From: Methylorubrum extorquens
GTDB taxonomy: Bacteria; Pseudomonadota; Alphaproteobacteria; Rhizobiales; Beijerinckiaceae
Length of the DNA stretch: 32,000 bases
Direction: 5' to 3'
Assembly: GCA_900234795.1 (NCBI GenBank)
Contig: LT962688.1
Location: 720,001 to 752,000 of the forward strand
The first letter of the stretch is position 1, and the number at the start of each line of letters is the position of its first letter. Both the position numbers and the translations under genes were made by a program. The notes under the pieces were generated by a model. The model saw nothing but the letters and a program-made list of their open reading frames with translations. It ran no database searches and had not been told where the DNA came from. This document shows, piece after piece, positions 9,683 to 28,471 of the stretch.

Positions 9683-11542
9683 CTACTGCGCTGCGATGGA
9701 TTCGCCTACCCTCGACTCGGATACGTCCGCGCCGCTGCCCCGTTCCTTCGCAGGACCGGTCGCGCGGCTGTAATTGAGGATCGTGTTGACGAGCGCAACA
9801 TGCGTGAACGCCTGAGGGAAGTTCCCCACCAGCCGTTTCGCGTGCACGTCGTACTCTTCGGAGACCAATCCGAGGTCGGTGCAGACACCGATCAGGCGCT
9901 CGATCAGCGCGCGAGCCTCGTCGCAGCGGCCGAGGCCGATCAGATTGTCGGCGTACCAGAAGCTGCAGGGCAGGAACGCGCCCTCGTTGCCGGGCAGGCC
10001 GTCGGTGGTCTGGCCTTCGGTCTCGTAGCGCAGGATGAACCCCTCGCGCATCAGATGCGATTCGACCGCCGCCACCGTGCCGACGACGCGGGGATCGTCC
10101 TGGGGCAGGAAGCCCATATGCGCGATGAGCAAGAGGCTCGCATCGAGCGCCTTGCTTCCGTAGGATTGGACGAAGCTGTTCAGCTCCGGGTCGAACCCCT
10201 TGGCACAGACCTCGGCGTGGATCTCGTCGCGGATCGCCCGCCAGTGCGCGACCGGCGCTTCGACGGTGTGCGGATCGTCGTCGCCCATCAGCTCGACGCT
10301 GCGGATCGCCCGGTCGAAGGCCACCCAGGCCATCACCTTGGAATGGACGAAGTGGCGCCGCCCGCCGCGCACCTCCCAGATGCCCTCATCGGGCTGGCGC
10401 CACGCCGTCTCGAGGTGCTTGATGATCGCTTGGCCGACGCGCAGGCCGTCCTTGTTCTGCCCCATGCCGCGGGCACGGGCCTGGAACAGGGCGTCGAACA
10501 ATTCCCCGTAGACATCGAGCTGGAACTGGGCGATCGCCGCGTTGCCGACGCGCACGGGCCGCGAACCCTCGTAGCCGGGCAGCCAGTCGAGTTCGATCTC
10601 CGGCAGAAGCCGCTCGCCGGCGATGCCGTAGAGGATATGCGCCTGCTCCGGGTTGCCGGCCACCGCGCGGGTCAGCCAGTCGCGCCAGGCGCGGGCCTCC
10701 TCGATGTAGCCCGAATCCATCAGCGCCAGCAGCGTGAAGGTCGAATCGCGCAGCCAGCAGAAGCGGTAGTCCCAGTTGCGCACCCCGCCGAGTTCTTCCG
10801 GCAGCGACGTGGTGGGCGCGGCGACGATACCCCCGGTCGGTTGGTAGATCAGCGCCTTCAGCGTCAGGAGCGAGCGGCGCAGGATGGCGTCCCAGGGTGT
10901 CTGGAGCATGCAGCGGCTCGACCACTCGCGCCAGAACCGGTTGGTGTCGTCGAGCCAGCGGCGCGGCTCGATCGGTGCAGGATCGTCCTCGTGCGAGGCG
11001 CCGTAGCTCAGCACGAAGCGGACCGCGTCGCCCTTGTAGACCGTGAATTCCGAGACCGTGGTCTGGTGGGCGGAGCCGCGCATCGGCGCGTTGGTGCGCA
11101 GGACCACCTTGTGCGGCCCGGAGATGGCGCGCAGATCCCCGAGTTCGCTGCGCGAGACCCAGGGCACCGCCGAGCCGTAATCGAAGCGCACGGCCAGTTC
11201 CATCCGCATCGCCATCCGGCCACGCACGCCCTCGACGAGGCGGATCACGTGGCTGCCGTCGCCGACGGGCATGAAGTCGGTGACGCGGACCTCGCCCTCA
11301 TGGGTCTTGTGCGTGGTCTCCAGCACCAGCGAGCCGCCGCGGTAGCGCCAGGAATGCTGTGCCCCCTCCGCCGCCGGAGCGAGCTTCCAGAAGCCGTGCT
11401 CCTCCGTTCCGAGAAGGCTCGCGAACAGGGCCGAGGCATCGAAGCGCGGCATGCACAGCCAGTCGATGCTGCCGTCGCGGCCGACCAGGGCCGCGGTGCG
11501 CCCGTCGCCGATCAGGGCGTAATCCTCGATCCGTCCCGCCAT
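9683..11542 (-). CDS. Glycoside hydrolase family 15 protein (glucoamylase/trehalase-like)
   Basis: 619 aa. The N-terminus is IEDYALIGDGRTAALVGRDGSIDWLCMPRFD. The catalytic-domain motifs are NWDYRFCWLRDS and GAFLPCSFWYADNL. It lies 50 nt upstream of tkt on the same strand. Confidence 0.9.
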   Translation of the reverse strand: MAGRIEDYALIGDGRTAALVGRDGSIDWLCMPRFDASALFASLLGTEEHGFWKLAPAAEGAQHSWRYRGGSLVLETTHKTHEGEVRVTDFMPVGDGSHVIRLVEGVRGRMAMRMELAVRFDYGSAVPWVSRSELGDLRAISGPHKVVLRTNAPMRGSAHQTTVSEFTVYKGDAVRFVLSYGASHEDDPAPIEPRRWLDDTNRFWREWSSRCMLQTPWDAILRRSLLTLKALIYQPTGGIVAAPTTSLPEELGGVRNWDYRFCWLRDSTFTLLALMDSGYIEEARAWRDWLTRAVAGNPEQAHILYGIAGERLLPEIELDWLPGYEGSRPVRVGNAAIAQFQLDVYGELFDALFQARARGMGQNKDGLRVGQAIIKHLETAWRQPDEGIWEVRGGRRHFVHSKVMAWVAFDRAIRSVELMGDDDPHTVEAPVAHWRAIRDEIHAEVCAKGFDPELNSFVQSYGSKALDASLLLIAHMGFLPQDDPRVVGTVAAVESHLMREGFILRYETEGQTTDGLPGNEGAFLPCSFWYADNLIGLGRCDEARALIERLIGVCTDLGLVSEEYDVHAKRLVGNFPQAFTHVALVNTILNYSRATGPAKERGSGADVSESRVGESIAAQ

Positions 11543-11763
11543 CCCGGTCTCCGTCGCCGTACCCTGAGCCGAACGACGCGGGGGAAACGCGGACTTCGGC
11601 CTTACTCACAGAGCATCACGCGCGAAAAAGCCGCCGCGTCGGAGACGCGGTGGACGTGATCGCGGTTCTGCTCCGCGCGAAGTGGCGCAGCGGCCGCGCT
11701 TCGCAAGGTTTCGGGGCTAACGATTGTGAAGACCGCGCGTTTGGCGGCGCGGCGCGCTCCGTC

Positions 11764-12384
11764 TCAGCGCAGATCCGAGACGAGGCTGACGACCGAGCCG
11801 CTCAGGTTCGAGACGCTGGTCGTGACCTTGGCCGCCGCGCCGGAGCCGGCCGTACGGGCCGCATCCCAGACCGCGTCGACGGCGGCGAAGGGGAGGGCGC
11901 CTGCGGGCAGGACGCGATCACTCTCGTCCTCCACACGCGCCATAGCGGCCGGCGCAGGAATAACCGGCTCGGATGCGGCTTTCGCCGGGCTCGCTTGCTG
12001 CGTCGTCGCCATCCGGCTCGCGGTGGCGCGCCGGCGCTCGGTTCGGGTGGCGAGGCGCGGGGGGCGGGCCTGCGGTGGGGCGGCCTCGTTTGCGGCGACG
12101 AGGGGCACGAGGCGGGCGAAGGCCTCGCTGGCCGGCCCCGCCTCGACATCGGCGAGCAGGGCCTTGCCCGGATCGAACAACGTGAAGCCGGGCGCCGCAG
12201 CCATGGCCGGCACGGGCCGCGCCGATTCGACCGGCGGCATCGTCGGCCCCTTGGCCGGCTCGCGGCAGACGAGCGACAGCAGGGCGGCGGCCACGGCGAG
12301 GCCGAGGGTCGGCAGCAGGGGGGGAAGCACGGCGCGAGGGGTCGCGGACACGTCCGGCTTTCGCAGCGGATCGACGACGCGCAT
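11764..12384 (-). CDS. Hypothetical Ala/Pro-rich membrane-anchored protein
   Basis: ATG at 12384 is preceded by AGGAGGGG (12391-12398 on the minus strand). It has one hydrophobic helix (LPPLLPTLGLAVAAALLSLV) and high GC3. No family recognised. The track's longer 244-aa version starts upstream of the RBS. Confidence 0.5.
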   Translation of the reverse strand: MRVVDPLRKPDVSATPRAVLPPLLPTLGLAVAAALLSLVCREPAKGPTMPPVESARPVPAMAAAPGFTLFDPGKALLADVEAGPASEAFARLVPLVAANEAAPPQARPPRLATRTERRRATASRMATTQQASPAKAASEPVIPAPAAMARVEDESDRVLPAGALPFAAVDAVWDAARTAGSGAAAKVTTSVSNLSGSVVSLVSDLR

Positions 12385-12508: not shown

Positions 12509-12636
12509 TGCGAGGCGTCCGCCCCTCACGAGGCAGGTGCTTGCGCACGTGCCTCCATGTAGACGGACCGCCTTCTTTACCTCGTGCCTTCCTCGCCTAT
12601 GCCTTCCTCGAACGGATCGAACCACTCCGGCCCTCG

Positions 12637-14266: not shown

Positions 14267-14301
14267 GGGCTGCATCGCGCAGCAGCATCAGCCCATTTTT
14301 T
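14267..14301 (+). terminator. Intrinsic terminator after nasS
   Basis: GGGCTG...CAGCCC stem (14267-14294) followed by ATTTTTT (14295-14301). A weaker hairpin CAGCC-ATCGGC-GGCTG (14221-14236) plus T6 (14241-14246) precedes it. Confidence 0.6.
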
Positions 14302-14398
14302 GTGCACCGCATGAAATCCTGGGGCCGCTGAGCGCGGGCAGCGCAGCAAACCCGTGATGCCGGCGCTCCGAGAGGGGCGGCACGCTCTTCAGCGCAGT

Positions 14399-14415
14399 TG
14401 GCACGGCTCCTGCAG
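14399..14415 (+). promoter_or_regulatory. Sigma-54 (RpoN) promoter of the nrtA operon
   Basis: TGGCACG-GCTC-CTGCA versus the consensus TGGCACG-N4-TTGCW. The -24 element matches 7 of 7 and the -12 element 4 of 5, with correct spacing, about 155 nt upstream of the nrtA ATG. Confidence 0.65.
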
Positions 14416-14427
14416 AGATGTTCGCAC

Positions 14428-14474
14428 GGGCTCGTCAACGACGACGCGCCCCAAACGTCAGCAAGGCCGCTGAT
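14428..14474 (+). promoter_or_regulatory. Candidate ANTAR (NasT) RNA target: two tandem hexaloop hairpins
   Basis: P1 is 14428-14451 with stem GGGC(t)CGTC/GACG(c)GCCC and loop AACGAC. P2 is 14457-14474 with stem GTCAGC/GCTGAT and loop AAGGCC. Both loops have A at position 1 and G at position 4, and a 5-nt linker separates them. Confidence 0.5.
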
Positions 14475-14534
14475 CCGGACTGCCCGCACGCGACGAAGGT
14501 CGATCGCGCAGGCGATCCCGGACGGCGGCCTTTT
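14465..14534 (+). terminator. Leader terminator/attenuator overlapping ANTAR hairpin P2
   Basis: The long-range stem GGCCGCTG(a)TCCGG (14465-14478) pairs with CCGGACGGCGGCC (14518-14530) and encloses an inner hairpin. TTTT follows at 14531-14534. The 5' arm shares 14465-14474 with P2, so the two structures are mutually exclusive. Confidence 0.5.
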
Positions 14535-14568: not shown

Positions 14569-15861
14569 ATGAGCATCGATCACGGCAACACGACCCGCCG
14601 CGGCGTCCTCAAGGGGGCGGCGGCTGCCCTCGCCCTCGCGGGTGCGGCTCGTGCCGCCTTGCCGGCCGGTGCCTTCGCGCAGGGCGGGGGGCCGGAGGTG
14701 AAGGGCGCCAAGCTCGGCTTCATCGCGCTCACCGATGCGGCGCCGCTCTTTGTCGCCAAAGAGAAGGGCATCTTCGCCAAGTACGGCCTGCCCGATACCG
14801 AGGTGCTGAAGCAGGCAAGCTGGGGCACGACCCGCGACAACCTCGTGCTCGGCTCCGAGGGCAACGGCATCGACGGCGCTCACATCCTCACCCCGATGCC
14901 CTACCTGATCTCCGCCGGCCGGGTGACGCAGAACAACGTGCCGGTGCCGATGTACATCATGGCCCGGCTCAACCTGAACGGTCAGTGCATCTCGATCGCC
15001 AAGGAGCATATCGACCACAAGATCGGGCTCGACACCAAGCCGTTCAAAGCCGCGCTGGAAGCCAAGAAGGCGTCGGGCAAGGCGGTGAAGGCCGCCATGA
15101 CCTTCCCCGGCGGCACCCACGACCTCTGGATCCGCTACTGGCTCGCCGCCGGCGGCATCGACCCCGACAAGGACATCGAGACCATCGTCGTGCCGCCGCC
15201 CCAGATGGTGGCGAACATGAAGGTCGGCACGATGGACTGCTTCTGCGTCTGCGAGCCGTGGAACGAGCAGCTCATCCACCAGGGCATCGGCTACACCGCC
15301 ATCACCACGGGCGAACTCTGGAAGGATCACCCGGAGAAGGCCTTCGCCATGCGCGCGGCTTGGGTCGACAAATACCCCAACGCCGCCAAGGCCCTGCTGA
15401 TGGCGGTGATGGAGGCCCAGCAATGGTGCGACAAGCCCGAGAACCGCGACGAGATGGCGGCGATCGTGGCCAAGCGCCAGTGGATCAACGTGCCGGTCGC
15501 CGACGTCGTCGACCGCATGAAGGGCAAGTTCGACTACGGCACCGGCCGGGTCGTCGAGAACAGCCCGCACATCATGAAGTTCTGGGGCGACAACGCCTCG
15601 TACCCGTATCAGTCGCACGACCTCTGGTTCCTCACCGAGGACATCCGCTGGGGCAAGTTCGACGCCCAGACCGACACCAAGGCGCTGATCGCCAAGGTCA
15701 ACCGTGAGGATCTCTGGCGCGAGGCCGCCAAGGCGCTCGGCGTCGCGGCGATCCCGACCTCCACCTCGCGCGGCGTCGAGACGCTGTTCGACGGCAAGGT
15801 CTTCGATCCGGAAAACCCCGCCGCCTACCTCAACAGCCTCGGCATCAAGAAGGTCGCGTGA
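14569..15861 (+). CDS. nrtA: Nitrate ABC transporter periplasmic substrate-binding protein NrtA
   Basis: 430 aa from ATG 14569. It has a twin-arginine signal (TRRGVLKGAAAALALAGAARAALPAGAFAQ) and the NrtA-type motif KLGFIALTDAAPLFVAKEKGIFAKYGL. The track's upstream extension (14398) is Arg-rich junk. Confidence 0.9.
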   Translation: MSIDHGNTTRRGVLKGAAAALALAGAARAALPAGAFAQGGGPEVKGAKLGFIALTDAAPLFVAKEKGIFAKYGLPDTEVLKQASWGTTRDNLVLGSEGNGIDGAHILTPMPYLISAGRVTQNNVPVPMYIMARLNLNGQCISIAKEHIDHKIGLDTKPFKAALEAKKASGKAVKAAMTFPGGTHDLWIRYWLAAGGIDPDKDIETIVVPPPQMVANMKVGTMDCFCVCEPWNEQLIHQGIGYTAITTGELWKDHPEKAFAMRAAWVDKYPNAAKALLMAVMEAQQWCDKPENRDEMAAIVAKRQWINVPVADVVDRMKGKFDYGTGRVVENSPHIMKFWGDNASYPYQSHDLWFLTEDIRWGKFDAQTDTKALIAKVNREDLWREAAKALGVAAIPTSTSRGVETLFDGKVFDPENPAAYLNSLGIKKVA

Positions 15862-16730: not shown

Positions 16731-17525
16731 ATGGCACATCTCTCCCTCTCCCAGGTCGGCATCACGTTTCATCGCGGCGGCAAGGCATCGGAAGTGCTGC
16801 GCGACGTGAACCTCGACATCGCCAAGGGCGAGTTCGTCTCGATCATCGGGCATTCCGGCTGCGGCAAGTCGACGGTGCTCAACATCGTCGCCGGCCTGCT
16901 CAAGGCCTCGACCGGCGGCGTGCTGCTGGACGGGCGCGAGGTGAACGCCCCCGGCCCCGACCGCGCGGTGGTGTTCCAGAACCACTCGCTGCTGCCCTGG
17001 CTCACCGTGCGCGAGAACGTGGCGCTCGCCGTCGACAAGGTCTCGAAGGGCAAGAAGACCCGCGCCGAGCGCACCCAGTGGATCGAGCACAACCTCGCGC
17101 TCGTGAACATGGTGCACGCCGCCGACAAGCGCCCGAACGAGATCTCGGGCGGCATGAAGCAGCGCGTCGGCATCGCCCGCGCGCTCGCGATGGAGCCGAC
17201 CGTGCTGCTCATGGACGAGCCGTTCGGCGCGCTCGACGCGCTGACCCGCGCCCACCTTCAGGACCAGACCATGGAGATCCAGCAGCGGCTGAAGAACACC
17301 GTCATCATGATCACCCACGATGTGGACGAGGCGGTGCTGCTCTCCGACCGCATCGTGATGATGACGAACGGCCCGTCGGCGACCATCGGCGAGATCCTGC
17401 CCGTGCCGCTGGCGCGGCCTCGCCGCCGGCTCGACCTCGTGGAGGATGCCACCTACGTCCACGCCCGCGCCGCGGTGCTGGAATTCCTCTACGCCCGCCA
17501 CGCCAAGCCTGCTCTCGCTGCCTGA
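16731..17525 (+). CDS. nrtC: Nitrate ABC transporter ATP-binding protein
   Basis: 264 aa. Walker A is GHSGCGKST, the signature is ISGGMKQRVGIARAL and Walker B is LLMDEPFGALD. Confidence 0.9.
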   Translation: MAHLSLSQVGITFHRGGKASEVLRDVNLDIAKGEFVSIIGHSGCGKSTVLNIVAGLLKASTGGVLLDGREVNAPGPDRAVVFQNHSLLPWLTVRENVALAVDKVSKGKKTRAERTQWIEHNLALVNMVHAADKRPNEISGGMKQRVGIARALAMEPTVLLMDEPFGALDALTRAHLQDQTMEIQQRLKNTVIMITHDVDEAVLLSDRIVMMTNGPSATIGEILPVPLARPRRRLDLVEDATYVHARAAVLEFLYARHAKPALAA

Positions 17526-17550: not shown

Positions 17551-18771
17551 ATGAGCGTGAAGGACAGACTCGTCGTCGTCGGCAACGGCATGGCCTCGCT
17601 CCGCTTCCTCGAGCGGCTGACGGAGCGCGCGCCGGGCCGCTACGACGTGACGGTGGTCGGCGCCGAGCCGGTGGCGGCCTATAACCGGGTGCTGCTCTCC
17701 TCGCTGCTCGGCGGCGAGGTGGACGAGGCGGCCTGCGGCTTCCGTCCGCTCCCCTGGTACGAGGAGCACGGCATCCGCCTCGTCACCGGCGCACCGGTGA
17801 CCGAGATCGACCGGGCGAACCGCATCGCCCTCGTCGGCTCCGCCCATGTGCTGCCCTACGACAAGCTGGTGCTGGCGGTGGGCTCGCTGCCGATCCGGCT
17901 GCCGCTGCCCGGCATCGACCTGCCCGGCGTCCTCACCTTCCGCGATTTCGCCGATGTGGCGGCGATCCGCAAAGCCGCCGTCGAGCATGCCAAGGCGGTG
18001 GTGATCGGCGGCGGGCTTCTGGGCCTGGAGGCCGCGGTCGGGCTCGCCCGGCTCGGGGTCGACACCACCCTGATCCACGTCATGGACCGAGTGATGGAGC
18101 GCCAGCTCGACCACGCGGCCGCCCGCCTCGTGCGCACGGCGATGGAAGCGCGCGGCGTCAAGGTGATGCTGTCCGCCGACACCGCCGCGATCGAGGGCGA
18201 CGGACGCGTCGAGCGCCTGCGGATGAAGGACGGCACCGTGATCCCGGCCGACCTCGTGGTGATGTCGGTCGGCATCCGCGCCTCGACCGCCCTGGCGCAG
18301 TCCTGCGGGCTCGCCTGCGGGCGCGGCATCACGGTGGACGACCGGATGACCACCTCCGATCCGGCGATCCATGCGCTCGGCGAATGCGCCGAGCACAGGG
18401 GCGTCGTTTACGGCCTCGTCGAGCCCGCCTACGAGCAGGCCGAGGTGCTGTCGCGGGCGCTTCTCGGCGAGGCGGCGACCTATCCCGGCACATCCCTTGC
18501 CACCAGCCTCAAGGTGTCGGGCCTGCCGGTCTTCTCGGCCGGATTGGTCGATACGCCCGAGGGTGCCGAGGCCGTCGTGATGCACGATGCCGCCGCCGGC
18601 CTCTACCGCAAGCTGATCATCGCCGACGGCCGCCTCGCGGGGGCGGTCTTCGTCGGCGATATCGCGGAGCAGGCGCGCTGCAAGGAGCTGATCCGCTCCG
18701 GCGCGCCGCTCTCCCCTGACGACCGGGACGACTTGATGTTCGGCCCGGCCCCGAAAACCCTCGCAGCGTGA
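17551..18771 (+). CDS. FAD-dependent NAD(P)H oxidoreductase, NirB N-terminal-like (Flp-like)
   Basis: 406 aa from ATG 17551 (RBS GAAGGGGGA 17532-17540). The dinucleotide folds are VVVGNGMAS and AVVIGGGLLGLEA, and GECAEHRG is typical of NirB/rubredoxin-reductase-type flavoproteins. It has no sirohaem or Fe-S domain. Confidence 0.85.
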   Translation: MSVKDRLVVVGNGMASLRFLERLTERAPGRYDVTVVGAEPVAAYNRVLLSSLLGGEVDEAACGFRPLPWYEEHGIRLVTGAPVTEIDRANRIALVGSAHVLPYDKLVLAVGSLPIRLPLPGIDLPGVLTFRDFADVAAIRKAAVEHAKAVVIGGGLLGLEAAVGLARLGVDTTLIHVMDRVMERQLDHAAARLVRTAMEARGVKVMLSADTAAIEGDGRVERLRMKDGTVIPADLVVMSVGIRASTALAQSCGLACGRGITVDDRMTTSDPAIHALGECAEHRGVVYGLVEPAYEQAEVLSRALLGEAATYPGTSLATSLKVSGLPVFSAGLVDTPEGAEAVVMHDAAAGLYRKLIIADGRLAGAVFVGDIAEQARCKELIRSGAPLSPDDRDDLMFGPAPKTLAA

Positions 18772-18782
18772 GTGAGGCAGCG

Positions 18783-20573
18783 ATGGCAGACGAATTTAAC
18801 GCCGAGCAGAAGCGCTACCTGGAGGGCTTCGCCTCCGGCATCGCCGCGGCCCGCATGACCGGCGGCCTCGCCGCGGGCCAAGCCCCGGCGAGCGCGCCGG
18901 CCGAGCCCACGGGCCCGGACGCGATCCACATCAAGGCACAGATCCGCACCGTGAAGGAGGGCGGCAAGCTCTGCGACCAGGAGAAGTGGAAGCGCGCCGA
19001 GAACCCGTTCGACGGCCATAACCGGCTGAAGGCGGAGGCCGCCACGGGCAAGGCTCCGAAGCCCGAGGACAACTTCCGCTGGCGCTACCACGGCATGTTC
19101 TGGGTCGCGCCGACCCAGACCTCCTACATGTGCCGGATCCGGGTTCCGAACGGCATCCTGCACCACTGGCAGTTCGCCGGTCTCGCCGACCTCGCGGATG
19201 CCCATGGCGGCGCCTACAGCCACGTCACCACCCGCGCGGGCCTGCAGGTGCGCGAGATCGCGCCCGAGCACGCCCAGCCCTTCCTCGACGGGCTGATCGA
19301 TCTCGGCCTGACCGCGCAGGGCGCGGGCGCCGACAACATCCGCAACGTCACCGGCTCGCCGGCCGCCGGCATCGACGCGCAGGAACTGCTGGACACCCGT
19401 CCCCTCACCAAGTCCTGGCACAACTGGATCCTGAACGACCGCTCGCTCTACGGCCTGCCGCGCAAGTTCAACGTCTCCTTCGACGGCGGCGGCGTGATGC
19501 CGGCGCTCGAAGAGACGAACGACATCGGCTTCCAGGCGATCCAGGTGCTGGAGGGCGCCCCGGTCGCGCCGGGCGTCTGGATGCGCCTCGTGCTCGGCGG
19601 CATCTCGGGCCACAAGGATCTGGCCCGCGACACGGGGATCGTCCTCAGGCCCGAGGACTGCAACCTTGTGGCCGACGCGATCATCCGGGTCTTCATCGAG
19701 AACGGCGACCGGACCAACCGCAACAAGGCCCGGATGAAGTACGTCCTCGACGCCTGGGGCTTCGACAAGTACATCGCCGCCGTCGAGGAGAAGCTCGGGC
19801 GCAAGCTCGACCGGGTCGACGCCGCCCATGTCGCCCCGCGCCGGCCGACCGACCGCTTCAGCCATGTCGGCGTCCATGCCCAGGTCCAACCCGGCCTGAA
19901 CTGGGTCGGCGTGGTGCTCCCCGTCGGCAAGATGACCACCGACCAGATGCGCGGGCTGGCGAAGATCGCCGCGGAATGCGGCGACGGCCAGATCCGCATG
20001 ACGGTCTGGCAGAACTTCATCTTCTCCGGCGTGCCGGACGCGAAGGTGGCCGAGGTCGAGGAACGGGTGCTCGCGCTCGGGCTCACGGTGAAGGCCGCCG
20101 GCATCCGCTCGGGCCTCGTCGCCTGCACCGGCTCGCGCGGCTGCAAGTTCGCCGCCTCCGACACCAAGGGCCACGCGATGATCATCGCGGACCATGTCGA
20201 GCGGACCGTGCCGAACCTCGACGTGCCGGTGAACGTGCACCTCACCGGCTGCCACCATTCCTGCGCCCAGCACTACATCGGCGATATCGGCCTGATCGGC
20301 GCCAAGGTCGTCGTCTCGGAGGAGGGCGACACCGTCGAGGGCTACGACGTCGTGGTCGGCGGTGGTTTCGCCGAGAACCCGAAGATCGGCACCGAGATCT
20401 GGAAGGCGGTGAAGGCTGAAGACGCGCCCTCGCGCGTCGAAGCGCTGCTCAACGCCTATCTCGCCCGCCGCCAGGGCCCGGAGGAGAGCTTCCAGGCCTT
20501 CACCGCGCGCACCGGCCCCGAGGCCCTGCGCGACGCCGCCGAAGAACAACCCGCCCTCAAGGCCGCCGCATGA
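18783..20573 (+). CDS. nirA: Ferredoxin-type nitrite/sulfite reductase hemoprotein (NirA family)
   Basis: The sirohaem-[4Fe-4S] ligand pattern is CTGSRGC (Cys codons 20124, 20142) and CHHSC (20250, 20262). It has a duplicated NIR_SIR-like architecture. ATG 18783 follows GAGG (18774-18777), and GTG 18768 (a GTGA overlap with the upstream gene) is an alternative. Confidence 0.9.
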   Translation: MADEFNAEQKRYLEGFASGIAAARMTGGLAAGQAPASAPAEPTGPDAIHIKAQIRTVKEGGKLCDQEKWKRAENPFDGHNRLKAEAATGKAPKPEDNFRWRYHGMFWVAPTQTSYMCRIRVPNGILHHWQFAGLADLADAHGGAYSHVTTRAGLQVREIAPEHAQPFLDGLIDLGLTAQGAGADNIRNVTGSPAAGIDAQELLDTRPLTKSWHNWILNDRSLYGLPRKFNVSFDGGGVMPALEETNDIGFQAIQVLEGAPVAPGVWMRLVLGGISGHKDLARDTGIVLRPEDCNLVADAIIRVFIENGDRTNRNKARMKYVLDAWGFDKYIAAVEEKLGRKLDRVDAAHVAPRRPTDRFSHVGVHAQVQPGLNWVGVVLPVGKMTTDQMRGLAKIAAECGDGQIRMTVWQNFIFSGVPDAKVAEVEERVLALGLTVKAAGIRSGLVACTGSRGCKFAASDTKGHAMIIADHVERTVPNLDVPVNVHLTGCHHSCAQHYIGDIGLIGAKVVVSEEGDTVEGYDVVVGGGFAENPKIGTEIWKAVKAEDAPSRVEALLNAYLARRQGPEESFQAFTARTGPEALRDAAEEQPALKAAA

Positions 20574-22175
20574 CCCAGCACGTCGCGCCCCCGCTCGTTC
20601 TCATCCCCGAGAGCGCCCCCTTCAACGCCGACCAGCGCTCCTGGCTGTCCGGCTACTTCGCCGCGCTGCTGGGCCCCGCCGTGGAAGGCGCCACCGCGCT
20701 CGCCCCCGGCGAGGCGCCGTCCACGGGTCCGAAGCTCGCCGACAACGACGACGCGCCCTGGCACGACCCGTCGATGCCGATCAACGACCGCATGGCGATC
20801 GCCAAGGACCGCTCCGAGCCGCAGAAGCTGATGGCCGCCATGGCCCAGCAGGATTGCGGGCAGTGCGGCTACAATTGCGCCGACTATGCCAACGCGATCT
20901 TCCTCAAGAGCGAGGAGCGGCTGAACCTTTGCCAGCCCGGCGGCAAAGAAACGCTTCGGATGCTCAAGAAGCTCGACGAGGAGTTCGGCGCCGCGGGGGG
21001 CACGGCCGCTCCGAAGGCGGAGGCGGGCGACGCTCCGAAGAAGGAGCCGGAACTCGGGCCGCTCGGCTATTGCCGCGAGAACCCGGTCGAGGCGACCTTC
21101 CTCTCCCGCACGCGCCTCAACGCGCCGGGCGGCGAGAAGGAAACGTGGCACATCGAGATCGACCTGCGGGATACGCCGATCACCTACGAGGCGGGCGATT
21201 CCCTCGGCCTGTTCCCCGCCAACGCCCCGGCGCTGGTGGATGCAGTGATCGCCGAACTCGGCACGCGGCCCGAGCGGATGATCGCGGGCAAGACCCTGCG
21301 CGACCGGCTGCTAACCGAGTATTCCCTGGGTGCTGCGCCGGACAACCTCTACCAACTCCTCTCGCTCCTGACCTCGGGTGCCGCCCGGAAGAAGGCGCAG
21401 GCGCTGGCGGCCGGCGAGGATCCGGACGGCGATGCGCAGCATCTCGACGTGCTCGGTGCGCTCCACAAATTCCCCGGTGCGCGCCCCGATGCCGAGGTCT
21501 TCCTAGAGGCGCTCGACGAGTTGCAGCCGCGGCTCTACTCGATCTCCTCCTCGCCGAAGATGGATGAGGGCCGGGTTTCGCTCACCGTCGATGCGGTGCG
21601 CTACAACCATCGCTCGCGCCTGCGCCTCGGCGTCGCCTCCACGCATCTGGGCGAGCGTCTCCCGGAGCAGACCAAAGTCCGGATCTACCTGCAGAAGGCG
21701 CACGGCTTCGGCCTGCCGGCGGATGCAGCCAAGGACGTGATCATGTGCGGCCCCGGCACCGGCGTCGCCCCGTTCCGCTCCTTCCTGCGTGAGCGCGCGG
21801 CCACGAAGGCCCCCCGGCCGCAACTGGCTGTTCTACGGCCACCAGCGGCAAGCGACCGACTTCTTCTACAAGGACGAGCTGAACGGCCTGAAGGAAGACA
21901 AGGTGCTGACCCGCCTCTCGCTCGCTTGGTCGCGTGACGGCACGGAAAAGACCTACGTGCAGGACCGCATGCGCGAGAACGGCGCCGAGCTGTGGAAATG
22001 GCTGGAGGGCGGCGCCCATTTCTATGTCTGCGGCGATGCCAAGCGCATGGCCAAGGACGTGGAGCGGGCGATCATCGACGTCGCCGCCCAGTTCGGCGGC
22101 AAGAACCCCGACGAGGCCGTGGCCTACCTCGCCGCCCTCAAGAAGAGCGGGCGCTATCAGGCCGACGTGTACTGA
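20570..22175 (+). pseudogene. CysJ-like FAD/NADPH flavoprotein (sulfite-reductase alpha-like) lacking the FMN domain; reading frame broken by one extra C at 21810-21815
   Basis: The FAD/NADPH motifs are RLYSISSSP, GPGTGVAPFRSF, YVCGDAKRMAKDV and the terminal ...RYQADVY. The frame switches at AAGGCCCCCCGGCCGC. Removing one C gives ...RAATKAPGRNWLFYGHQ..., which is colinear, as I recall it, with E. coli CysJ ...RAADEAPGKNWLFFG. An ATGA overlap joins it to nirA. It may be intact in reality if the C6 run is an assembly error. Confidence 0.85.
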
Positions 22176-22177
22176 GG

Positions 22178-22198
22178 GGGAGGGGGTTTTCCCCTCCC
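22178..22198. terminator. Bidirectional stem-loop between convergent cysJ-like and lysR genes
   Basis: GGGAGGGG-GTTTT-CCCCTCCC is an 8-bp stem starting 3 nt after the stop at 22175. It belongs to the same GGGGAGGG family as the other palindromes. Confidence 0.45.
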
Positions 22199-22204
22199 AC
22201 CGCC

Positions 22205-23111
22205 TCAGGCCGCCGGGTTGACCCGCGGATCGGCGCGCAGCCGTGCCGCGGCGAGATCGACGAAGGCGCGGGTCTTGGCCGGCGCCCGCCGTCCCTCGGG
22301 ACTGACGACGTGGATCGGAACCGGCGCCTCCTCGTCATCCGTGAGCAGGATGCGCAGGCGCCCTTCCGCCACCGCCGACGCGACCTGATAGGACAGCAGA
22401 CGCGCGATCCCCCATCCATCGAGGGCCGCCGCCAGCGACGCATCGACCGTGTTGCAGACGAGCCGGGCATGGACGCCCACCGTGGTGCGCCCCCTCGGGC
22501 CCGAACCGCCATTCCGGCAGGGCACCGGGGTTTGACGCGCCGATCACCGCGTGATCGCGCAGGTCGCGCGGTGTTTCGGGCACGCCGTGCCGCTCCAAAT
22601 AGCTCGGTGCGGCGCAGACGACCCGGCGCACGCTGCCGACGCGGGTCGCCGTGAGCCCGGAATCGGCCAGATGCCCGATCCGCACGCCGACATCGATGCC
22701 CTCCTCGATCAGGTTGACGATCCGGTCGAGGAACAGCGCGCGGACCGCCACCGCCGGGTAGCGCGCGAGATAATCGGTCACCACCGGCAACACGTAGAGC
22801 CGCCCGAATTGCACCGGGGCCGTCAGCGTCAGGACACCGGTCGGCGTCGCGGTCGAGCCCGCGGCGGTGGCCTCCGCTTCCGCGATCTCGGCGAGGATCC
22901 GGCGGCAATCCTCCAGATAGCGCCCGCCGGCCTCGGTGAGCTTCACGGAGCGCGTGGTGCGGATGAACAGCCGCGCCCCGATCACCGCTTCGAGTGCCGC
23001 CACGGCGCGCGTGACCGCGGCCGGGCTCATGGACAGCGCACGGGCCGCCCCGGCAAAGCCGCCGCTCTCGGCAACCCGCACGAACACCCGCATCCCTTGC
23101 AGCCGGTCCAT
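22205..23111 (-). pseudogene. LysR-family transcriptional regulator, frame broken by one extra base near 22490-22494
   Basis: The N-terminal HTH is MDRLQGMRVFVRVAESGGFAGAARALSMSPAAVTRAVAALE. The C-terminal LysR substrate-binding region (...TTVGVHARLVCNTVDASLAAALDGWGIARLLSYQV...KTRAFVDL) continues in another frame (track ORF 22205-22525). Deleting one G from GAGGGGGCG restores about 296 aa. Confidence 0.85.
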
Positions 23112-24803: not shown

Positions 24804-25461
24804 TCAGTCGGATTTCCGACTGCAGCGGATGTAGCTCGCTTGGCCCTTGCCGCTCGTCCAGGTGAGCCGGTCATGCTCGACGAGGAGGCGGACCTGTGAG
24901 GTCCAGCGACGGCCGCGCTCGCTGCAATCGGCGGCCATGGTCCAGGCGCTGCCCTCGCGGCGGTTGTTGCGGAAACGGCAGGTGGTGCGCCCGGCCTTGG
25001 CCCCGTCCTCGGTGATCGTGGCGGGCAGGAAACCGCGGCGGCGCTGGCGCTGGCCGCAGGCCACCGGGGGTCGGTCCCCAGATGCCGACGAAGGCGGCAC
25101 GCTCCACCAGCGGCGCGGCGGGCCGCGGCTCGGCGGGGGGGACCACCGTCTCCAGCGGCGGTGCGGGCGCGGCGACCGTAAGCACCCGCGGCGGGTTGGC
25201 GGCGGGCGTCGCCGGCCGCTCCGGCTCGGGCAACCGCACCTCCGGGACGTCGATGCTGTCGGTCGGCGCGAATCGGGTCTGACCGGCGGGCGCCGCCACC
25301 GACCCGTCATCGGTGAGCACGATCAGGGTGTAAGCGAACAGGGCGCCCCAGCCCGCGGCCAGGATCACCGGGATCGCGAGACGCCGCGACAGAACCGCGG
25401 ACGTCACCTCCCGTGCCCCCTCACCGGTCCCGCCAGCCTCCTGCGCGCCGTCAGCCGTCAT
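24804..25461 (-). pseudogene. Hypothetical membrane-anchored protein (TM helix, Pro-rich linker, C-terminal 4-Cys domain), frame broken near 25066-25070
   Basis: The N-part (track ORF 24871-25461) codes cleanly to ...FVGIWGPTP. The C-part (track ORF 24804-25310) codes cleanly from VACGQRQRRRGFLPATITEDG... to the stop at 24804. Both have high GC3 only in those portions. Removing one base from the G5 run joins them. No family recognised. Confidence 0.5.
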
Positions 25462-25753
25462 CGGCTCTTCCGCCGCCCCCTCTCACCGCCTCTTCGGCCT
25501 GTGCTCCCGATATCAGCATTCTCGCGTCCGAGACGATGTTTCAGAAAACGGCGCCATGCGGCCGGCCGCGTCTTCGACCCGGGCCGCCCGCACCACAGGG
25601 CGCTTTTCCTAAAACGACTCAAGGCCATCGTGGCCCACATTCCGCGATAGACGCCGGGAATGCGGCAGAGGCACGGCAACCCCTTCCCGCAGCAAGCGGA
25701 ACCTGCCATGGTCAAGCTTGGCGGCCGCGACGGCCGTCGACCGTACCCGTGTA

Positions 25754-26083
25754 ATGAAACCTGTCACCCTCGCCGTTCTCGGCTCGGCACTGGCGCCTCT
25801 GCTCTCGTCGCCCTTTGCCCTCACTCCCGCCATGGCCCAGCCGCGCACGCAGACGGCGCGCCCGACCTGCGTGGAAGCGATGGCCCTGGTGAAGGCGGAA
25901 GGCGCGGCGACGCTCAGCTTCGGCGGGCGCCCGCCCGAGCGCTTCGTGCGCGACCGCAGCTTCTGCGAACTCACGGAAATCGCCGAGCTGCGCTTCGTCC
26001 CGACCCGCGACAACCCGCAATGCCCGATCGGCTATCGCTGCCGCGAGCCGGATTACGGTGACTGGAACTGGGACGCGAACTGA
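25754..26083 (+). CDS. Small secreted 4-Cys hypothetical protein (109 aa)
   Basis: ATG 25754. It has a signal peptide MKPVTLAVLGSALAPLLSSPFALTPAMA-Q, and the mature part has four Cys (PTC, SFC, PQC, YRC). No family recognised. Confidence 0.55.
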   Translation: MKPVTLAVLGSALAPLLSSPFALTPAMAQPRTQTARPTCVEAMALVKAEGAATLSFGGRPPERFVRDRSFCELTEIAELRFVPTRDNPQCPIGYRCREPDYGDWNWDAN

Positions 26084-26332
26084 GGGCGGAAGGTCCCGGA
26101 AAGCGGTCCCGGCAGTCGTCTCAAAAATCCTCGGAAAACTTGTCCACGGTGTCGCACCCGGCGGCGTCCGGCGCTGGCGGGCGGCAGCCCCACCCCGCGA
26201 CATGACCGAAATTTCACGTGACAGGCGCGGCTGCGCGCCACGTTCTCGCCACGACGGATAGCCAGGGCCGCCGCATTCGGCGATTGAACCCGTCCGTCGG
26301 CGCGCCATCCGATCCAAGGGTGGACAGGGCCG

Positions 26333-28471
26333 GTGCAGCGAGAAGGAACGACCCGCGTGGCCGCATTGAAGAGCAGGCTCGGCATCCAGGCCGTGCTGAC
26401 GGCGCTCGCCGCCCTCCTGCTGCTGGCCATGCCGGGGATTCCGAGCCCACCGCTCTACGTGTCGCTCGCGGGCTTCGCGATGGCGGGCATCCTCATCGCC
26501 TCGAACAGCCTCTCGGCCTACCTGAAGATTTTCATCTCGGTCTACGGCATCGGCTACCTGCTGCTGGCGGGCGCCAAGACCCTGGCGGCGATGGGCGCCC
26601 TGCCGGGCGTCGTCGCGGCGCTGCTGCCGCCGGATTTCGCCGCGACCGGCTCCGTGGTGTTCGCCGCCATCGTGCTCGCCGTCTCGCACTGGAAGCCGAT
26701 CCGCGACATCACGCTCATCGCCGACCCCTATTTCGCCAGCCACGACGCCCCGAGCCGGGAGATCGGCATGTTCCGCCGGTTCGGCCGCACCGAGGGCCAG
26801 ATCGGCCGCAACCTCGTGGCGCTGTCGATCTTCGTCAGCTTCGCGGACGTGGCGCTGACGCTGCGGTTCAACTTCTTCTACCGCGACATGTACAACGCGC
26901 TGCAGGAGTTCGACGCGCCGAGCTTCTGGTATCAGCTCGGCTGGATCTTCGTGCCGCTGGCGATCCTCAACGTCGTGATCGGCATGTTCGACATCTACGT
27001 CGATGCCGGATTGCAGCTCCGCTGGCGCACCTGGCTCACCCACAATCTCTACGAGCGTTGGCTCGGGGAGGGCACGCATTACCGCATCCCCTTCGTCGAC
27101 GAGCACGCCGACAACCCGGACCAGCGCATCCAGTCGGACGTCAACAACTTCATCGCCCAGACCACGACCCTCTCGACCCGGCTGCTCTCGCAGGCGGCGC
27201 AGCTCGTCTCCTTTATCGTCATCCTGTGGACGCTCTCGCGCGACTTCGTGCTGCCGTTCACGGACGCCGTGATCCCGGGCTTCCTCGTGTGGCTGGTGAT
27301 CGCCTACGCCGTGGTCGGCACCTGGCTCACGCACCTCATCGGTAAGCCGCTCATCGGCCTCGACTACCGGCAGGAACAAGTCGAGGCGGATTTCCGCTTC
27401 GCCCTGGCGCGCAACCGCATCTATTCCGAGCAGATCGCCTTGCTGCGCGGCGAGCGGGCCGAGGCGTCCCGCCTCGCCACCCTGTTCCACGCCATCGTCG
27501 ACAACTACGTCGGCATCATCTTCCGGCGCATCAAGCTGATCGCCTTCACCTTCAGCTACCGCCAGATGAGCGCGATCTTCCCGCTCGTCATCGCCGCGCC
27601 GTCCTTCTTTGCCAAGAAGATCACCCTCGGCGCCCTGCAGCAGACCTCGAACGCGTTCAGCAACGTCCAAAACTCGCTGAACTTCTTCATCAATTCCTAC
27701 ACCATCCTCGCCGCCTACAAGGCGAACACCATCCGTCTCGGCTCGTTCAAGCGGGCGATGACCCAGGCCGAGGCTCTGGCCGGCGCCGGCTACGGCCTCG
27801 CCAACGGCAACGAGACCGCCGGCGGCGTGACCGCCCGCGACCTGACGCTGGCGCTGCCCGATGGCCGCGAGATCGTGCATGCGGGCGCGCTCGAACTGCC
27901 GAAGGGCGGAGCGACCCTGGTCACCGGCCCCTCGGGCTCGGGCAAGTCGACCCTGTTCCGGGCGATCGCCGGGATCTGGCCGTTCGGCAAGGGCCGGGTC
28001 GACGTGCCGGCCGGACAGTCGGCGCTGGTTCTGCCGCAGCGGCCCTATCTCCCGCTCGGCTCCTTGCGCGGCGCGGTGGCCTATCCGAACCCGATCGACC
28101 GCTTCTCCGACGAAGAGATGCGCGACGCGCTCAAGGCCGCTCAGCTTCCCCAACTCGCGGACAAGCTCGACGAGGTCGATAGCTGGGACCGGCGCCTGTC
28201 GGGCGGCGAGCAGCAGCGCCTCGCCATCGCGCGGGCGATCCTGGCCAAGCCCGACTGGCTGTTCCTCGACGAATCGACCGCCGCCCTCGACGAGGAAACC
28301 GAGGCCGCGATCTACCGGACGCTGCGCGCGACGATGCCCGGCACGACCATCGTCTCGATCGGCCACCGCTCGACCCTGCACAAGCACCACGACCGCCGCG
28401 TCGAGATGAAGCCGACGGAGGGTGGCCGCTTCGAGCCGCGTCTATCGGCGATGCCGGCTCCGGCGGAGTAG
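26333..28471 (+). CDS. Fused permease/ATPase ABC transporter of the SbmA/BacA-like (YddA/Rv1819c-type) family
   Basis: The membrane domain motifs are FNFFYRDMYNALQEFD and DNPDQRIQSDVNNF. The ABC domain has Walker A GPSGSGKST, signature LSGGEQQRLAIARAIL and Walker B WLFLDESTAALD. It is 712 aa from GTG 26333. Confidence 0.9.
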   Translation: MQREGTTRVAALKSRLGIQAVLTALAALLLLAMPGIPSPPLYVSLAGFAMAGILIASNSLSAYLKIFISVYGIGYLLLAGAKTLAAMGALPGVVAALLPPDFAATGSVVFAAIVLAVSHWKPIRDITLIADPYFASHDAPSREIGMFRRFGRTEGQIGRNLVALSIFVSFADVALTLRFNFFYRDMYNALQEFDAPSFWYQLGWIFVPLAILNVVIGMFDIYVDAGLQLRWRTWLTHNLYERWLGEGTHYRIPFVDEHADNPDQRIQSDVNNFIAQTTTLSTRLLSQAAQLVSFIVILWTLSRDFVLPFTDAVIPGFLVWLVIAYAVVGTWLTHLIGKPLIGLDYRQEQVEADFRFALARNRIYSEQIALLRGERAEASRLATLFHAIVDNYVGIIFRRIKLIAFTFSYRQMSAIFPLVIAAPSFFAKKITLGALQQTSNAFSNVQNSLNFFINSYTILAAYKANTIRLGSFKRAMTQAEALAGAGYGLANGNETAGGVTARDLTLALPDGREIVHAGALELPKGGATLVTGPSGSGKSTLFRAIAGIWPFGKGRVDVPAGQSALVLPQRPYLPLGSLRGAVAYPNPIDRFSDEEMRDALKAAQLPQLADKLDEVDSWDRRLSGGEQQRLAIARAILAKPDWLFLDESTAALDEETEAAIYRTLRATMPGTTIVSIGHRSTLHKHHDRRVEMKPTEGGRFEPRLSAMPAPAE

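Follow-up and report, generated by a model that had tools for sequence, protein, structure and literature searches.

In the sulfite reductase CysJI of Escherichia coli, a sirohaem-[4Fe-4S] hemoprotein works with an NADPH flavoprotein of its own, encoded by the neighbouring gene, and in plants and cyanobacteria electrons pass from a flavoenzyme of the ferredoxin-NADP reductase (FNR) type through an Fe-S carrier to the ferredoxin-dependent nitrite reductase (NirA/Nii). In non-photosynthetic bacteria, Bradyrhizobium among them, 'ferredoxin' is the assumed physiological donor of NirA-type nitrite reductases. The bipartite nitrate assimilation (Nas) system of Bradyrhizobium japonicum consists of narK-bjgb-flp-nasC plus nasTS-nirA, and NirA is drawn there as ferredoxin-dependent, with no mention of the gene bll4570 (Cabrera et al., 2016; PMC4724949). 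Here we analysed a 32-kb window (the whole of the stretch from position 720,001 to 752,000 of contig LT962688.1; ~70 % G+C) from a Methylorubrum extorquens-like bacterium, in which nirA is directly followed by a gene encoding a CysJ-like flavoprotein, here termed cysJL. We consider it probable that the window carries a nas operon in which the CysJ-like protein is the dedicated reductase of NirA, with electrons passing from NADPH through flavin adenine dinucleotide (FAD) and a [4Fe-4S] cluster to NirA; that the Flp-like flavoprotein encoded upstream of nirA serves the nitrate reductase NasC; that nasC itself lies elsewhere; and that a frameshift interrupting cysJL in the sequence as given is an error.

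The cysJL product belongs to the NCBIfam family NF004859, 'sulfite reductase subunit alpha', which it matched over positions 1–535 with 928 bits (cutoff 432), as scored on the intact, 99 %-identical ortholog P0001. Against the CysJ model TIGR01931 the score was 378 bits, below the cutoff of 668, because only the FAD/NADPH half matches (model positions 221–597). Both FAD_binding_1 and NAD_binding_1 were present according to Pfam, and Flavodoxin_1 was matched neither by the window protein nor by a single one of 26 aligned representatives of the family (one per 50 %-identity cluster). What these proteins have in common ahead of the FAD/NADPH half is a segment of the form C96-x2-C99-x3-C103-x17-C121 followed by PGG, the four Cys of which are invariant in 26/26 representatives. 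Pfam PF04060 'FeS' is matched by all 26 (best E 8e-7), TIGR01944 rnfB matches the Cys segment with E=2e-8, and a profile of the domain searched against the whole PDB returned nothing but RnfB chains at E<0.01 (8ahx_B, E=5e-4; 7zc6_B, E=6e-3). These matches suggest that an RnfB-type four-Cys domain, predicted to bind a [4Fe-4S] cluster, occupies the place of the flavin mononucleotide (FMN) domain of CysJ. The likeness to the N-terminal domain of RnfB/RsxB is one of sequence (the CxxCx3-4C...CPGG pattern), with no structural match; unlike RnfB, the CysJ-like protein is soluble, carries a fused FNR module, and has neither a membrane anchor nor the 2x[4Fe-4S] ferredoxin-type domains.

The remainder of the protein closely resembles CysJ. 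Its FAD/NADPH module is homologous to that of CysJ with E=5e-85, the C-terminal 370 aa superimpose on E. coli SiR-FP60 (1ddg) with a template modelling (TM) score of 0.91 and a root-mean-square deviation of 2.3 Å, and the residues for FAD, NADPH and the 2'-phosphate are kept, in that RxYS, GxGxG, S-R...K.Y and the C-terminal Tyr are conserved in the family. In an AlphaFold2 model of the full-length protein (predicted local distance difference test score, pLDDT, 85.7) a helix at residues 20–33, the Cys domain at ~60–142 and the FAD/NADPH module from residue 167 are separated by two disordered linkers (pLDDT <50), a modelled layout that suits a mobile carrier domain such as the FMN domain of CysJ and CPR. 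A structure search with this model matched the FAD/NADPH part alone. Flavin/NAD(P)H modules that feed a partner metalloenzyme through an Fe-S centre of their own have precedents in Hcr (for Hcp), AsrB (anaerobic sulfite reductase) and BoxA, the last of which was a weak profile match here; these differ from the present pair in the type of Fe-S domain and in their partners, and none of them is known to serve NirA. Separately, a metagenomic sequence of 984 aa (P0162) was seen to carry NIR_SIR and NIR_SIR_ferr fused ahead of an Fe-S/FAD/NAD module. As Rosetta-stone evidence it was given little weight, being single, divergent and possibly mis-called.

We found NirA to be a full-length member of the NCBIfam 'NirA family protein' NF007126 (1057 bits, cutoff 523, residues 5–596 of 601), whilst NF007125 gave 345 bits, below its cutoff of 594. 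The protein contains two NIR_SIR_ferr/NIR_SIR pairs, and Cys453/459 (Cx5C) and Cys495/499 (Cx3C) are invariant in six diverse orthologs from Alpha-, Beta- and Gammaproteobacteria and Planctomycetes. Its best PDB matches are the ferredoxin-nitrite reductases of tobacco and spinach (3b0g, 2akj; E=7e-67), with which it shares the Cys ligands, followed by the weaker matches Mycobacterium tuberculosis SirA (7.5e-43), maize ferredoxin-sulfite reductase (1.6e-22) and E. coli CysI (~1e-18). Furthermore, 'PRKFN' of NirA aligns with 'PRKWN' of the tobacco enzyme, preserving the K-x-N motif where sulfite reductases carry K-x-K. The best reading of these comparisons is a sirohaem-[4Fe-4S] nitrite reductase with nitrite as its physiological substrate. 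In agreement with this, B. japonicum requires its 58 %-identical ortholog bll4571 to grow on nitrate or nitrite and to show methyl viologen-nitrite reductase activity (PMC4724949). Unlike the plant and cyanobacterial enzymes, NirA of the window has an additional N-terminal region of ~90 residues that is without counterpart in the solved nitrite reductases.

The association of the two genes was examined by a profile scan for the CysJ-like family in one genome per species, which gave 80 loci; pairing was counted in the 48 full-length members preceded by 1.9 kb of sequence or more, and context in the 35 fully flanked loci. NirA was immediately upstream of the CysJ-like gene, on the same strand, in 44/48 loci, and nasT, nasS, nrtA or nasC lay within 10 kb of it in 27/35, with the reservation that the loci are phylogenetically related, so that these counts overstate the support and the statistics are indicative only. 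The pair was found in Hyphomicrobiales, Planctomycetes and some Gamma- and Betaproteobacteria. It includes Bradyrhizobium, where nasT-nasS-nirA-cysJL corresponds to bll4573–bll4570, and where bll4570 carries the annotation 'probable sulfite reductase (NADPH) flavoprotein' and, in one B. diazoefficiens data table, is induced together with nrtA (PMC4926349). No sulfur-assimilation genes were noticed near the pair, though no search was aimed at them. The pair is, then, a widespread arrangement and the standard one in Hyphomicrobiales, already modelled in NCBIfam but misnamed, and from its genomic setting the CysJ-like protein looks dedicated to NirA, in a nitrogen rather than a sulfur context. 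A preliminary description of this DNA, made from its letters, had called the reductase module unusual, which the survey contradicts. It had also taken the partner to be FMN-less, naming a flavodoxin domain as the finding that would count against it; such a domain is absent from all 26 representatives, but the description overlooked the Fe-S domain that stands in the place of FMN. The comparison across genomes, in adjacency and in nitrogen context, lends good support to its proposal that NirA and a dedicated partner make up a self-contained, NAD(P)H-dependent system.

Variations in arrangement were also recorded. In two Reyranella loci (L033 and L037, ~9920–11605) the CysJ-like gene has a sigma-54-like element of its own and no adjoining NirA. 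In five loci from Verrucomicrobia (L064, L068, L069, L077 and L078) the order is reversed, with the cysJ-like gene preceding nirA, and the flavoprotein has a longer and more divergent N-terminal region.

The N-termini of NirA and the CysJ-like protein resemble one another. Both contain F-x3-Q-[KR]-x-[YW]-L-x-G-[FY] (hhalign probability 98 %, E=1e-13), and this helix motif occurs in 45/53 NirA orthologs and 53/59 CysJ-like orthologs, from Alphaproteobacteria to Planctomycetes. No further occurrence was found in the six frames of the window, and across all loci the motif is essentially confined to these two N-termini. An N-terminal extension of the hemoprotein is likewise a feature of CysJI, in which N-terminal segments mediate oligomerisation and subunit docking. 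We speculate that the shared helix may act as an assembly or docking element of the NirA/CysJ-like pair. The N-terminal extension of CysI is reported to dock on the sulfite reductase flavoprotein (PMC11195156).

From these observations a route for the electrons can be proposed. The CysJ-like gene, translationally coupled to nirA, would encode a dedicated NirA reductase composed, in order, of the conserved N-terminal helix, a flexible linker, the RnfB-type [4Fe-4S] domain, a second linker and the CysJ-type FAD/NADPH module. Electrons would pass from NADPH to FAD and on to the tethered [4Fe-4S] domain, which would act as a built-in ferredoxin replacing the FMN domain of CysJ, and this domain would in turn reduce the [4Fe-4S]-sirohaem centre of NirA, where nitrite would be converted to ammonium. 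The logic would be that of the plant and cyanobacterial systems, except that the role of the free ferredoxin would fall to an Fe-S domain joined to the FNR-type module and encoded alongside nirA. From CysJI it differs in the RnfB-type four-Cys domain that takes the place of an FMN/flavodoxin domain, and in a hemoprotein of the nitrite reductase type set in a nitrate-assimilation context. Gene order, domains and the conservation of ligands, pairing and context are observed; cluster binding, the direction of electron flow, the specificity for NADPH and the roles of the shared helix and of Flp are inferred.

The second flavoprotein of the operon, the 406-aa Flp-like protein, corresponds to the N-terminal 390 residues of NirB (TIGR02374 positions 1–390 of 794), that is to its FAD/NAD module. 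Unlike NirBD it stands alone, without the BFD 2Fe-2S domain, the sirohaem domain or NirD, and profile scans detected no Fe-S or BFD domain in it. As a free-standing module of Pyr_redox_2 and Rubredoxin_C it has the domain build of Flp/NasB-type NAD(P)H:nitrate-reductase electron-transfer flavoproteins. NasC (~900 aa; Molybdop_Fe4S4, Molybdopterin, Molydop_binding and Fer2_BFD) is encoded within 10 kb of the CysJ-like gene in 16/35 loci, mostly directly downstream, and in Methylobacterium sp. E-066 the order is nasTS-flp-nirA-cysJL-nasC-cysG. In the Methylorubrum lineage (the window, L001, L003, L004 and L084) only a hairpin and a LysR gene are found at the usual position of nasC. In M. zatmanii and M. 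populi, nasC and the sirohaem synthase gene cysG form a locus of their own (M. zatmanii L083, 10001–14284), and one M. populi metagenome-assembled genome appears to contain both NasC and the CysJ-like protein. Among the best 120 NasC matches none was named M. extorquens, and the extorquens group may lack nasC. As such, nasC seems to have split from the operon in the Methylorubrum lineage, and with this the absence of a nitrate reductase and a sirohaem synthase from the locus would be largely answered.

Over the 35 loci, Flp and nasC occurred together in 11, Flp only in two, nasC only in five and neither in 17 (Fisher p = 5e-4). Both loci with Flp only belong to this Methylorubrum lineage; nasC accompanies flp in 11 of the 13 relatives carrying flp, and does not do so in the window. 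Moreover, Fer2_BFD at the C-terminus of NasC is of the type that follows the Flp-like module in NirB, and NirA has no such domain. In Bradyrhizobium an flp mutant grows on nitrite and not on nitrate, which is to say that Flp serves NasC and not NirA (PMC4724949). Because Flp tracks nasC, because the BFD domain is on NasC and not on NirA, and because of the Bradyrhizobium genetics, the best reading of the Flp-like protein is that it is probably the NAD(P)H-dependent donor of NasC. NasT, NasS, NirA, Flp and NasC are orthologous to those of B. japonicum, control by NasS-NasT may be common to both, and in both nasC and nirA are at different loci (for the lineage of the window, in the sister species); the CysJ-like gene is also placed right after nirA in Bradyrhizobium. 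The two differ in that flp of the window is grouped with nirA and nrtABC, not with nasC, and in that nasC of the sister species goes with cysG.

The position of flp invites a different assignment, in which the Flp-like protein is the NAD(P)H reductase of NirA, the two forming a two-piece NirB, and the CysJ-like protein serves another enzyme, e.g. NasC. The correspondence to NirB residues 1–390 agrees with this, as do the location of flp directly upstream of nirA here and in 13/35 fully flanked loci, its retention beside nirA in this lineage although nasC lies elsewhere, and the frequent placement of nasC directly after the CysJ-like gene. We nevertheless hold it to be distinctly unlikely: the BFD-type 2Fe-2S domain that links the halves of NirB is the one missing from NirA and present in NasC, flp follows nasC and not nirA in its distribution, the adjacency of cysJL and nirA is much tighter than that of flp and nirA, and Bradyrhizobium has nirA-cysJL without flp, its flp being beside nasC and dispensable on nitrite (PMC4724949). 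Even less probable, to the point of being very improbable, is that the database name is right and that NirA and the CysJ-like protein are the hemoprotein and 'subunit alpha' of an assimilatory sulfite reductase. Apart from the name of NF004859, it has in its favour that the FAD/NADPH module is nearest to that of CysJ and that NirA-type enzymes can reduce sulfite, 'NirA' of M. tuberculosis being a sulfite reductase. It is opposed by the nitrate/nitrite gene context with its sigma-54-like promoters and, within the limits already stated, no sulfur genes; by NirA scoring far better against nitrite reductases and having the K-x-N motif of the plant enzyme; and by the phenotype of the B. japonicum nirA mutant, which is one of nitrate/nitrite utilization (PMC4724949).

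The third matter to be weighed is the integrity of cysJL itself. The open reading frame (ORF) 20570–21937 keeps the correct frame as far as '...FLRERAATKAP', after which it is out of register until its stop at 21937; the NADPH-domain half, 'GRNWLFYGHQ...RYQADVY', is found in the +1 frame, with its end at 22175. Deletion of one C yields a 534-aa protein that is one residue different from M. extorquens WP_056155019, and the extra C is absent from three relatives with 94–98 % DNA identity (L001, L002 and L084). Programmed +1 frameshifting at CCC_CCC_C was rejected, as the additional base is missing from all relatives. Compared with the 98 %-identical L084, the window contains six single-base homopolymer expansions (14241, 21810, 22490, 25066, 25476 and 26188) and zero contractions; four of the six disrupt coding sequences that no relative has broken, one each in cysJL and the LysR gene and two in a 237-aa gene, these three unrelated genes being hit within 3.7 kb. 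Because the homopolymer changes run in one direction only, the frameshift is most likely a sequencing error, a conclusion in which this comparison gives us strong confidence. Were it real, cysJL would be a pseudogene in this strain, and NirA would either use a free ferredoxin or flavodoxin or be idle. The extra C is, after all, present in the sequence as given, and the want of nasC in the window and of any named M. extorquens among the best NasC matches, as against M. populi and M. zatmanii, which have one, might indicate a decaying pathway. We regard a genuine lesion as unlikely, given that the gene is intact in all relatives, including the one that encodes the protein differing by a single residue, that one-sided homopolymer expansion is a signature of error, and that the rest of the gene is without decay, almost all differences from L002 being synonymous (100 % protein identity over 362 aa, 98 % DNA). 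The LysR gene is frameshifted at a C5 run at 22490, its counterparts in relatives encoding 301 aa. The gene hit by two expansions is a hypothetical one at ~24850–25560 on the minus strand.

Several points count against the CysJ-like protein being the Fe-S-bearing, dedicated reductase of NirA. The Pfam FeS score of the window protein is 20.7 bits, under the gathering score of 23, and a Foldseek search of the PDB with a model of residues 1–160 (pLDDT 78.7) found nothing (best E=4.5). In addition to the relatedness of the loci, noted above with the counts, 4/48 (two from Reyranella and two from Verrucomicrobia) have no adjacent NirA, and at the five loci with nasC and no Flp the CysJ-like protein may also serve NasC. 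If the frameshift were real, it would cost the copy of this strain most of its NADPH domain. Finally, no biochemical or genetic characterization of the CysJ-like partner was found in the literature searched, most subscription journals being outside the reach of that search.

The locus as a whole (Table 1) is an ordinary, probably nitrogen-regulated nitrate/nitrite assimilation operon, nasTS followed by nrtABC-flp-nirA-cysJL, with all genes from nasT to the nirA/cysJL pair tightly packed on the plus strand. As in the preliminary description, ORFs, Pfam and folding gave nrtABC, the flavoprotein, nirA and the CysJ-like gene in this order, ending at a hairpin and a convergent LysR gene, and the ferredoxin-type sirohaem reductase with Cx5C...Cx3C named there agrees with the NF007126 match and the invariant Cys. 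The Pfam scan, which covered all large ORFs of the window, likewise bears out that no molybdopterin nitrate reductase, NirD or sirohaem synthase is encoded between nasT and the end of the operon; neither a molybdopterin oxidoreductase nor a sirohaem synthase was found anywhere in the 32 kb, and NirD is absent from the window, there being no room for it in the operon because the genes are contiguous from nasT to the hairpin. An 892-aa ORF (25712–28390, minus strand) was considered as a hidden nitrate reductase and rejected, as it has no Pfam domain and is the antisense shadow of a plus-strand gene for an SbmA/BacA-type ABC transporter. The description was right that cysJL starts (at 20570) in an ATGA overlap with the nirA stop codon, but the gene is not one ORF, the C6 frameshift having gone unmentioned. 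nasT and nasS are also joined through ATGA. An overlap between flp and nirA exists only with the GTG start of the latter; NirA of relatives is annotated from the ATG lying 11 nt past the flp stop, and ATG at 18783 is the likely start.

Table 1. Coordinates of the features of the nas locus, numbered from the first base of the window
Feature	Position	Strand	Details
nasT, ANTAR antiterminator response regulator, 195 aa	12637–13224	+	Pfam ANTAR E=1e-21 and Response_reg
nasS, NrtA-like nitrate/nitrite sensor, 338 aa	13221–14237	+	Pfam NMT1_2 E=4e-62
Terminator-like hairpin and T6 run after nasS	14267–14304	+	GGGCTG...CAGCCC then TTTTTT; conserved in Methylorubrum loci; putative function
Sigma-54-type promoter-like element TGGCAC-N5-CTGCA	14399–14414	+	Pattern match only
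Leader hairpin and U-tract, 35 nt before nrtA	14465–14534	+	Conserved; between sigma-54-like element and nrtA
nrtA, periplasmic nitrate-binding protein	14569–15861	+	Pfam NMT1_2 E=3e-111
nrtB, permease	15858 (or 15861)–16718	+	L001 ortholog has BPD_transp_1; 99 % identical by tblastn
nrtC, ATPase	16731–17525	+	Pfam ABC_tran E=5e-35
Flp-like FAD/NAD(P)H oxidoreductase, 406 aa	17551–18771	+	Pfam Pyr_redox_2 E=3e-58, Pyr_redox, Rubredoxin_C
nirA, sirohaem-[4Fe-4S] nitrite reductase (best reading)	18768 (GTG) or 18783 (ATG)–20573	+	NF007126; Pfam NIR_SIR x2, NIR_SIR_ferr x2
NirA N-terminal motif FNAEQKRYLEGF	18795–18830	+	Common to CysJ-like N-terminus
CysJ-like (predicted Fe-S) flavoprotein gene, cysJL	20570–22175	+	Frame broken in window; 534 aa once one C is removed
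CysJ-like N-terminal motif FNADQRSWLSGY	20621–20656	+	Common to NirA N-terminus
RnfB-type Fe-S domain (predicted)	20822–20974	+	Cys96, Cys99, Cys103, Cys121 then PGG
C6 homopolymer with one extra C, +1 frameshift	21810–21815	+	C5 or GCGCCC at this site in L001, L002, L084
Stem-loop between convergent cysJ-like and lysR genes	22172–22208	.	-37.9 kcal/mol, z = -2.7
LysR-family regulator, convergent, outside the system	22205–23111	-	Pfam HTH_1 and LysR_substrate; frameshifted

Putative regulatory elements were found in the 330-nt leader between nasS and nrtA. The sigma-54-type element is the sole match to TGGCAC-N5-CTGCA in the window, where 0.05 would be expected, and is conserved in 5/5 aligned Methylorubrum-group sequences (the window and four relatives); similar elements are located directly upstream of nirA or the CysJ-like gene in several loci without nasTS. 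The hairpin between this element and nrtA shows almost no covariation despite its conservation, and is a candidate NasT-controlled attenuator. Together, the two elements are consistent with control by NtrC plus NasT. No Rfam family was matched anywhere in the window, a sigma-70 promoter scan of the window returned no sites, and a terminator scan performed at chance level. At the other end of the operon, the stem-loop covers the cysJL stop codon and its energy is that of a 66-nt folded stretch including a second, smaller stem; it is not followed by a T-tract, and the terminator scan gave no call there. Upstream of nasT, and unrelated to the operon, the minus strand carries a fused transaldolase/phosphoglucose-isomerase gene (941 aa; 4509–7334), a transketolase gene (7557–9632) and a glycoside hydrolase family 15 (GH15) glucoamylase/trehalase-like gene (9683–11542). 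Between the GH15 gene and nasT, the segments 11817–11960 and 12556–12584 are indel-rich and weakly conserved, and overlap a hypothetical protein of ~206 aa encoded on the minus strand in relatives.

The locus in the window is thus an ordinary member of an under-studied, CysJI-like two-component variant probably dedicated to nitrite. More tentatively, the pair could represent an uncharacterized class of NADPH-dependent assimilatory nitrite reductase, present in Alphaproteobacteria, Planctomycetes, Verrucomicrobia and some Beta- and Gammaproteobacteria, in which a tethered RnfB-type [4Fe-4S] domain replaces both the free ferredoxin and the FMN domain of CysJ, and in which the homologous helices serve assembly. 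In place of an assumed ferredoxin, the comparative evidence singles out one specific adjacent gene as encoding the probable donor of NirA. If this is true, the 'ferredoxin-dependent' label of rhizobial NirA would be wrong and thousands of genes would prove to be misnamed, and the 'sulfite reductase subunit alpha' annotation, which distorts the counting of nitrogen- and sulfur-cycle genes in genomes and metagenomes, would be corrected. The pair would, moreover, show a novel connection between an FNR module and a sirohaem enzyme, one made by 4Fe-4S where CysJI uses FMN.

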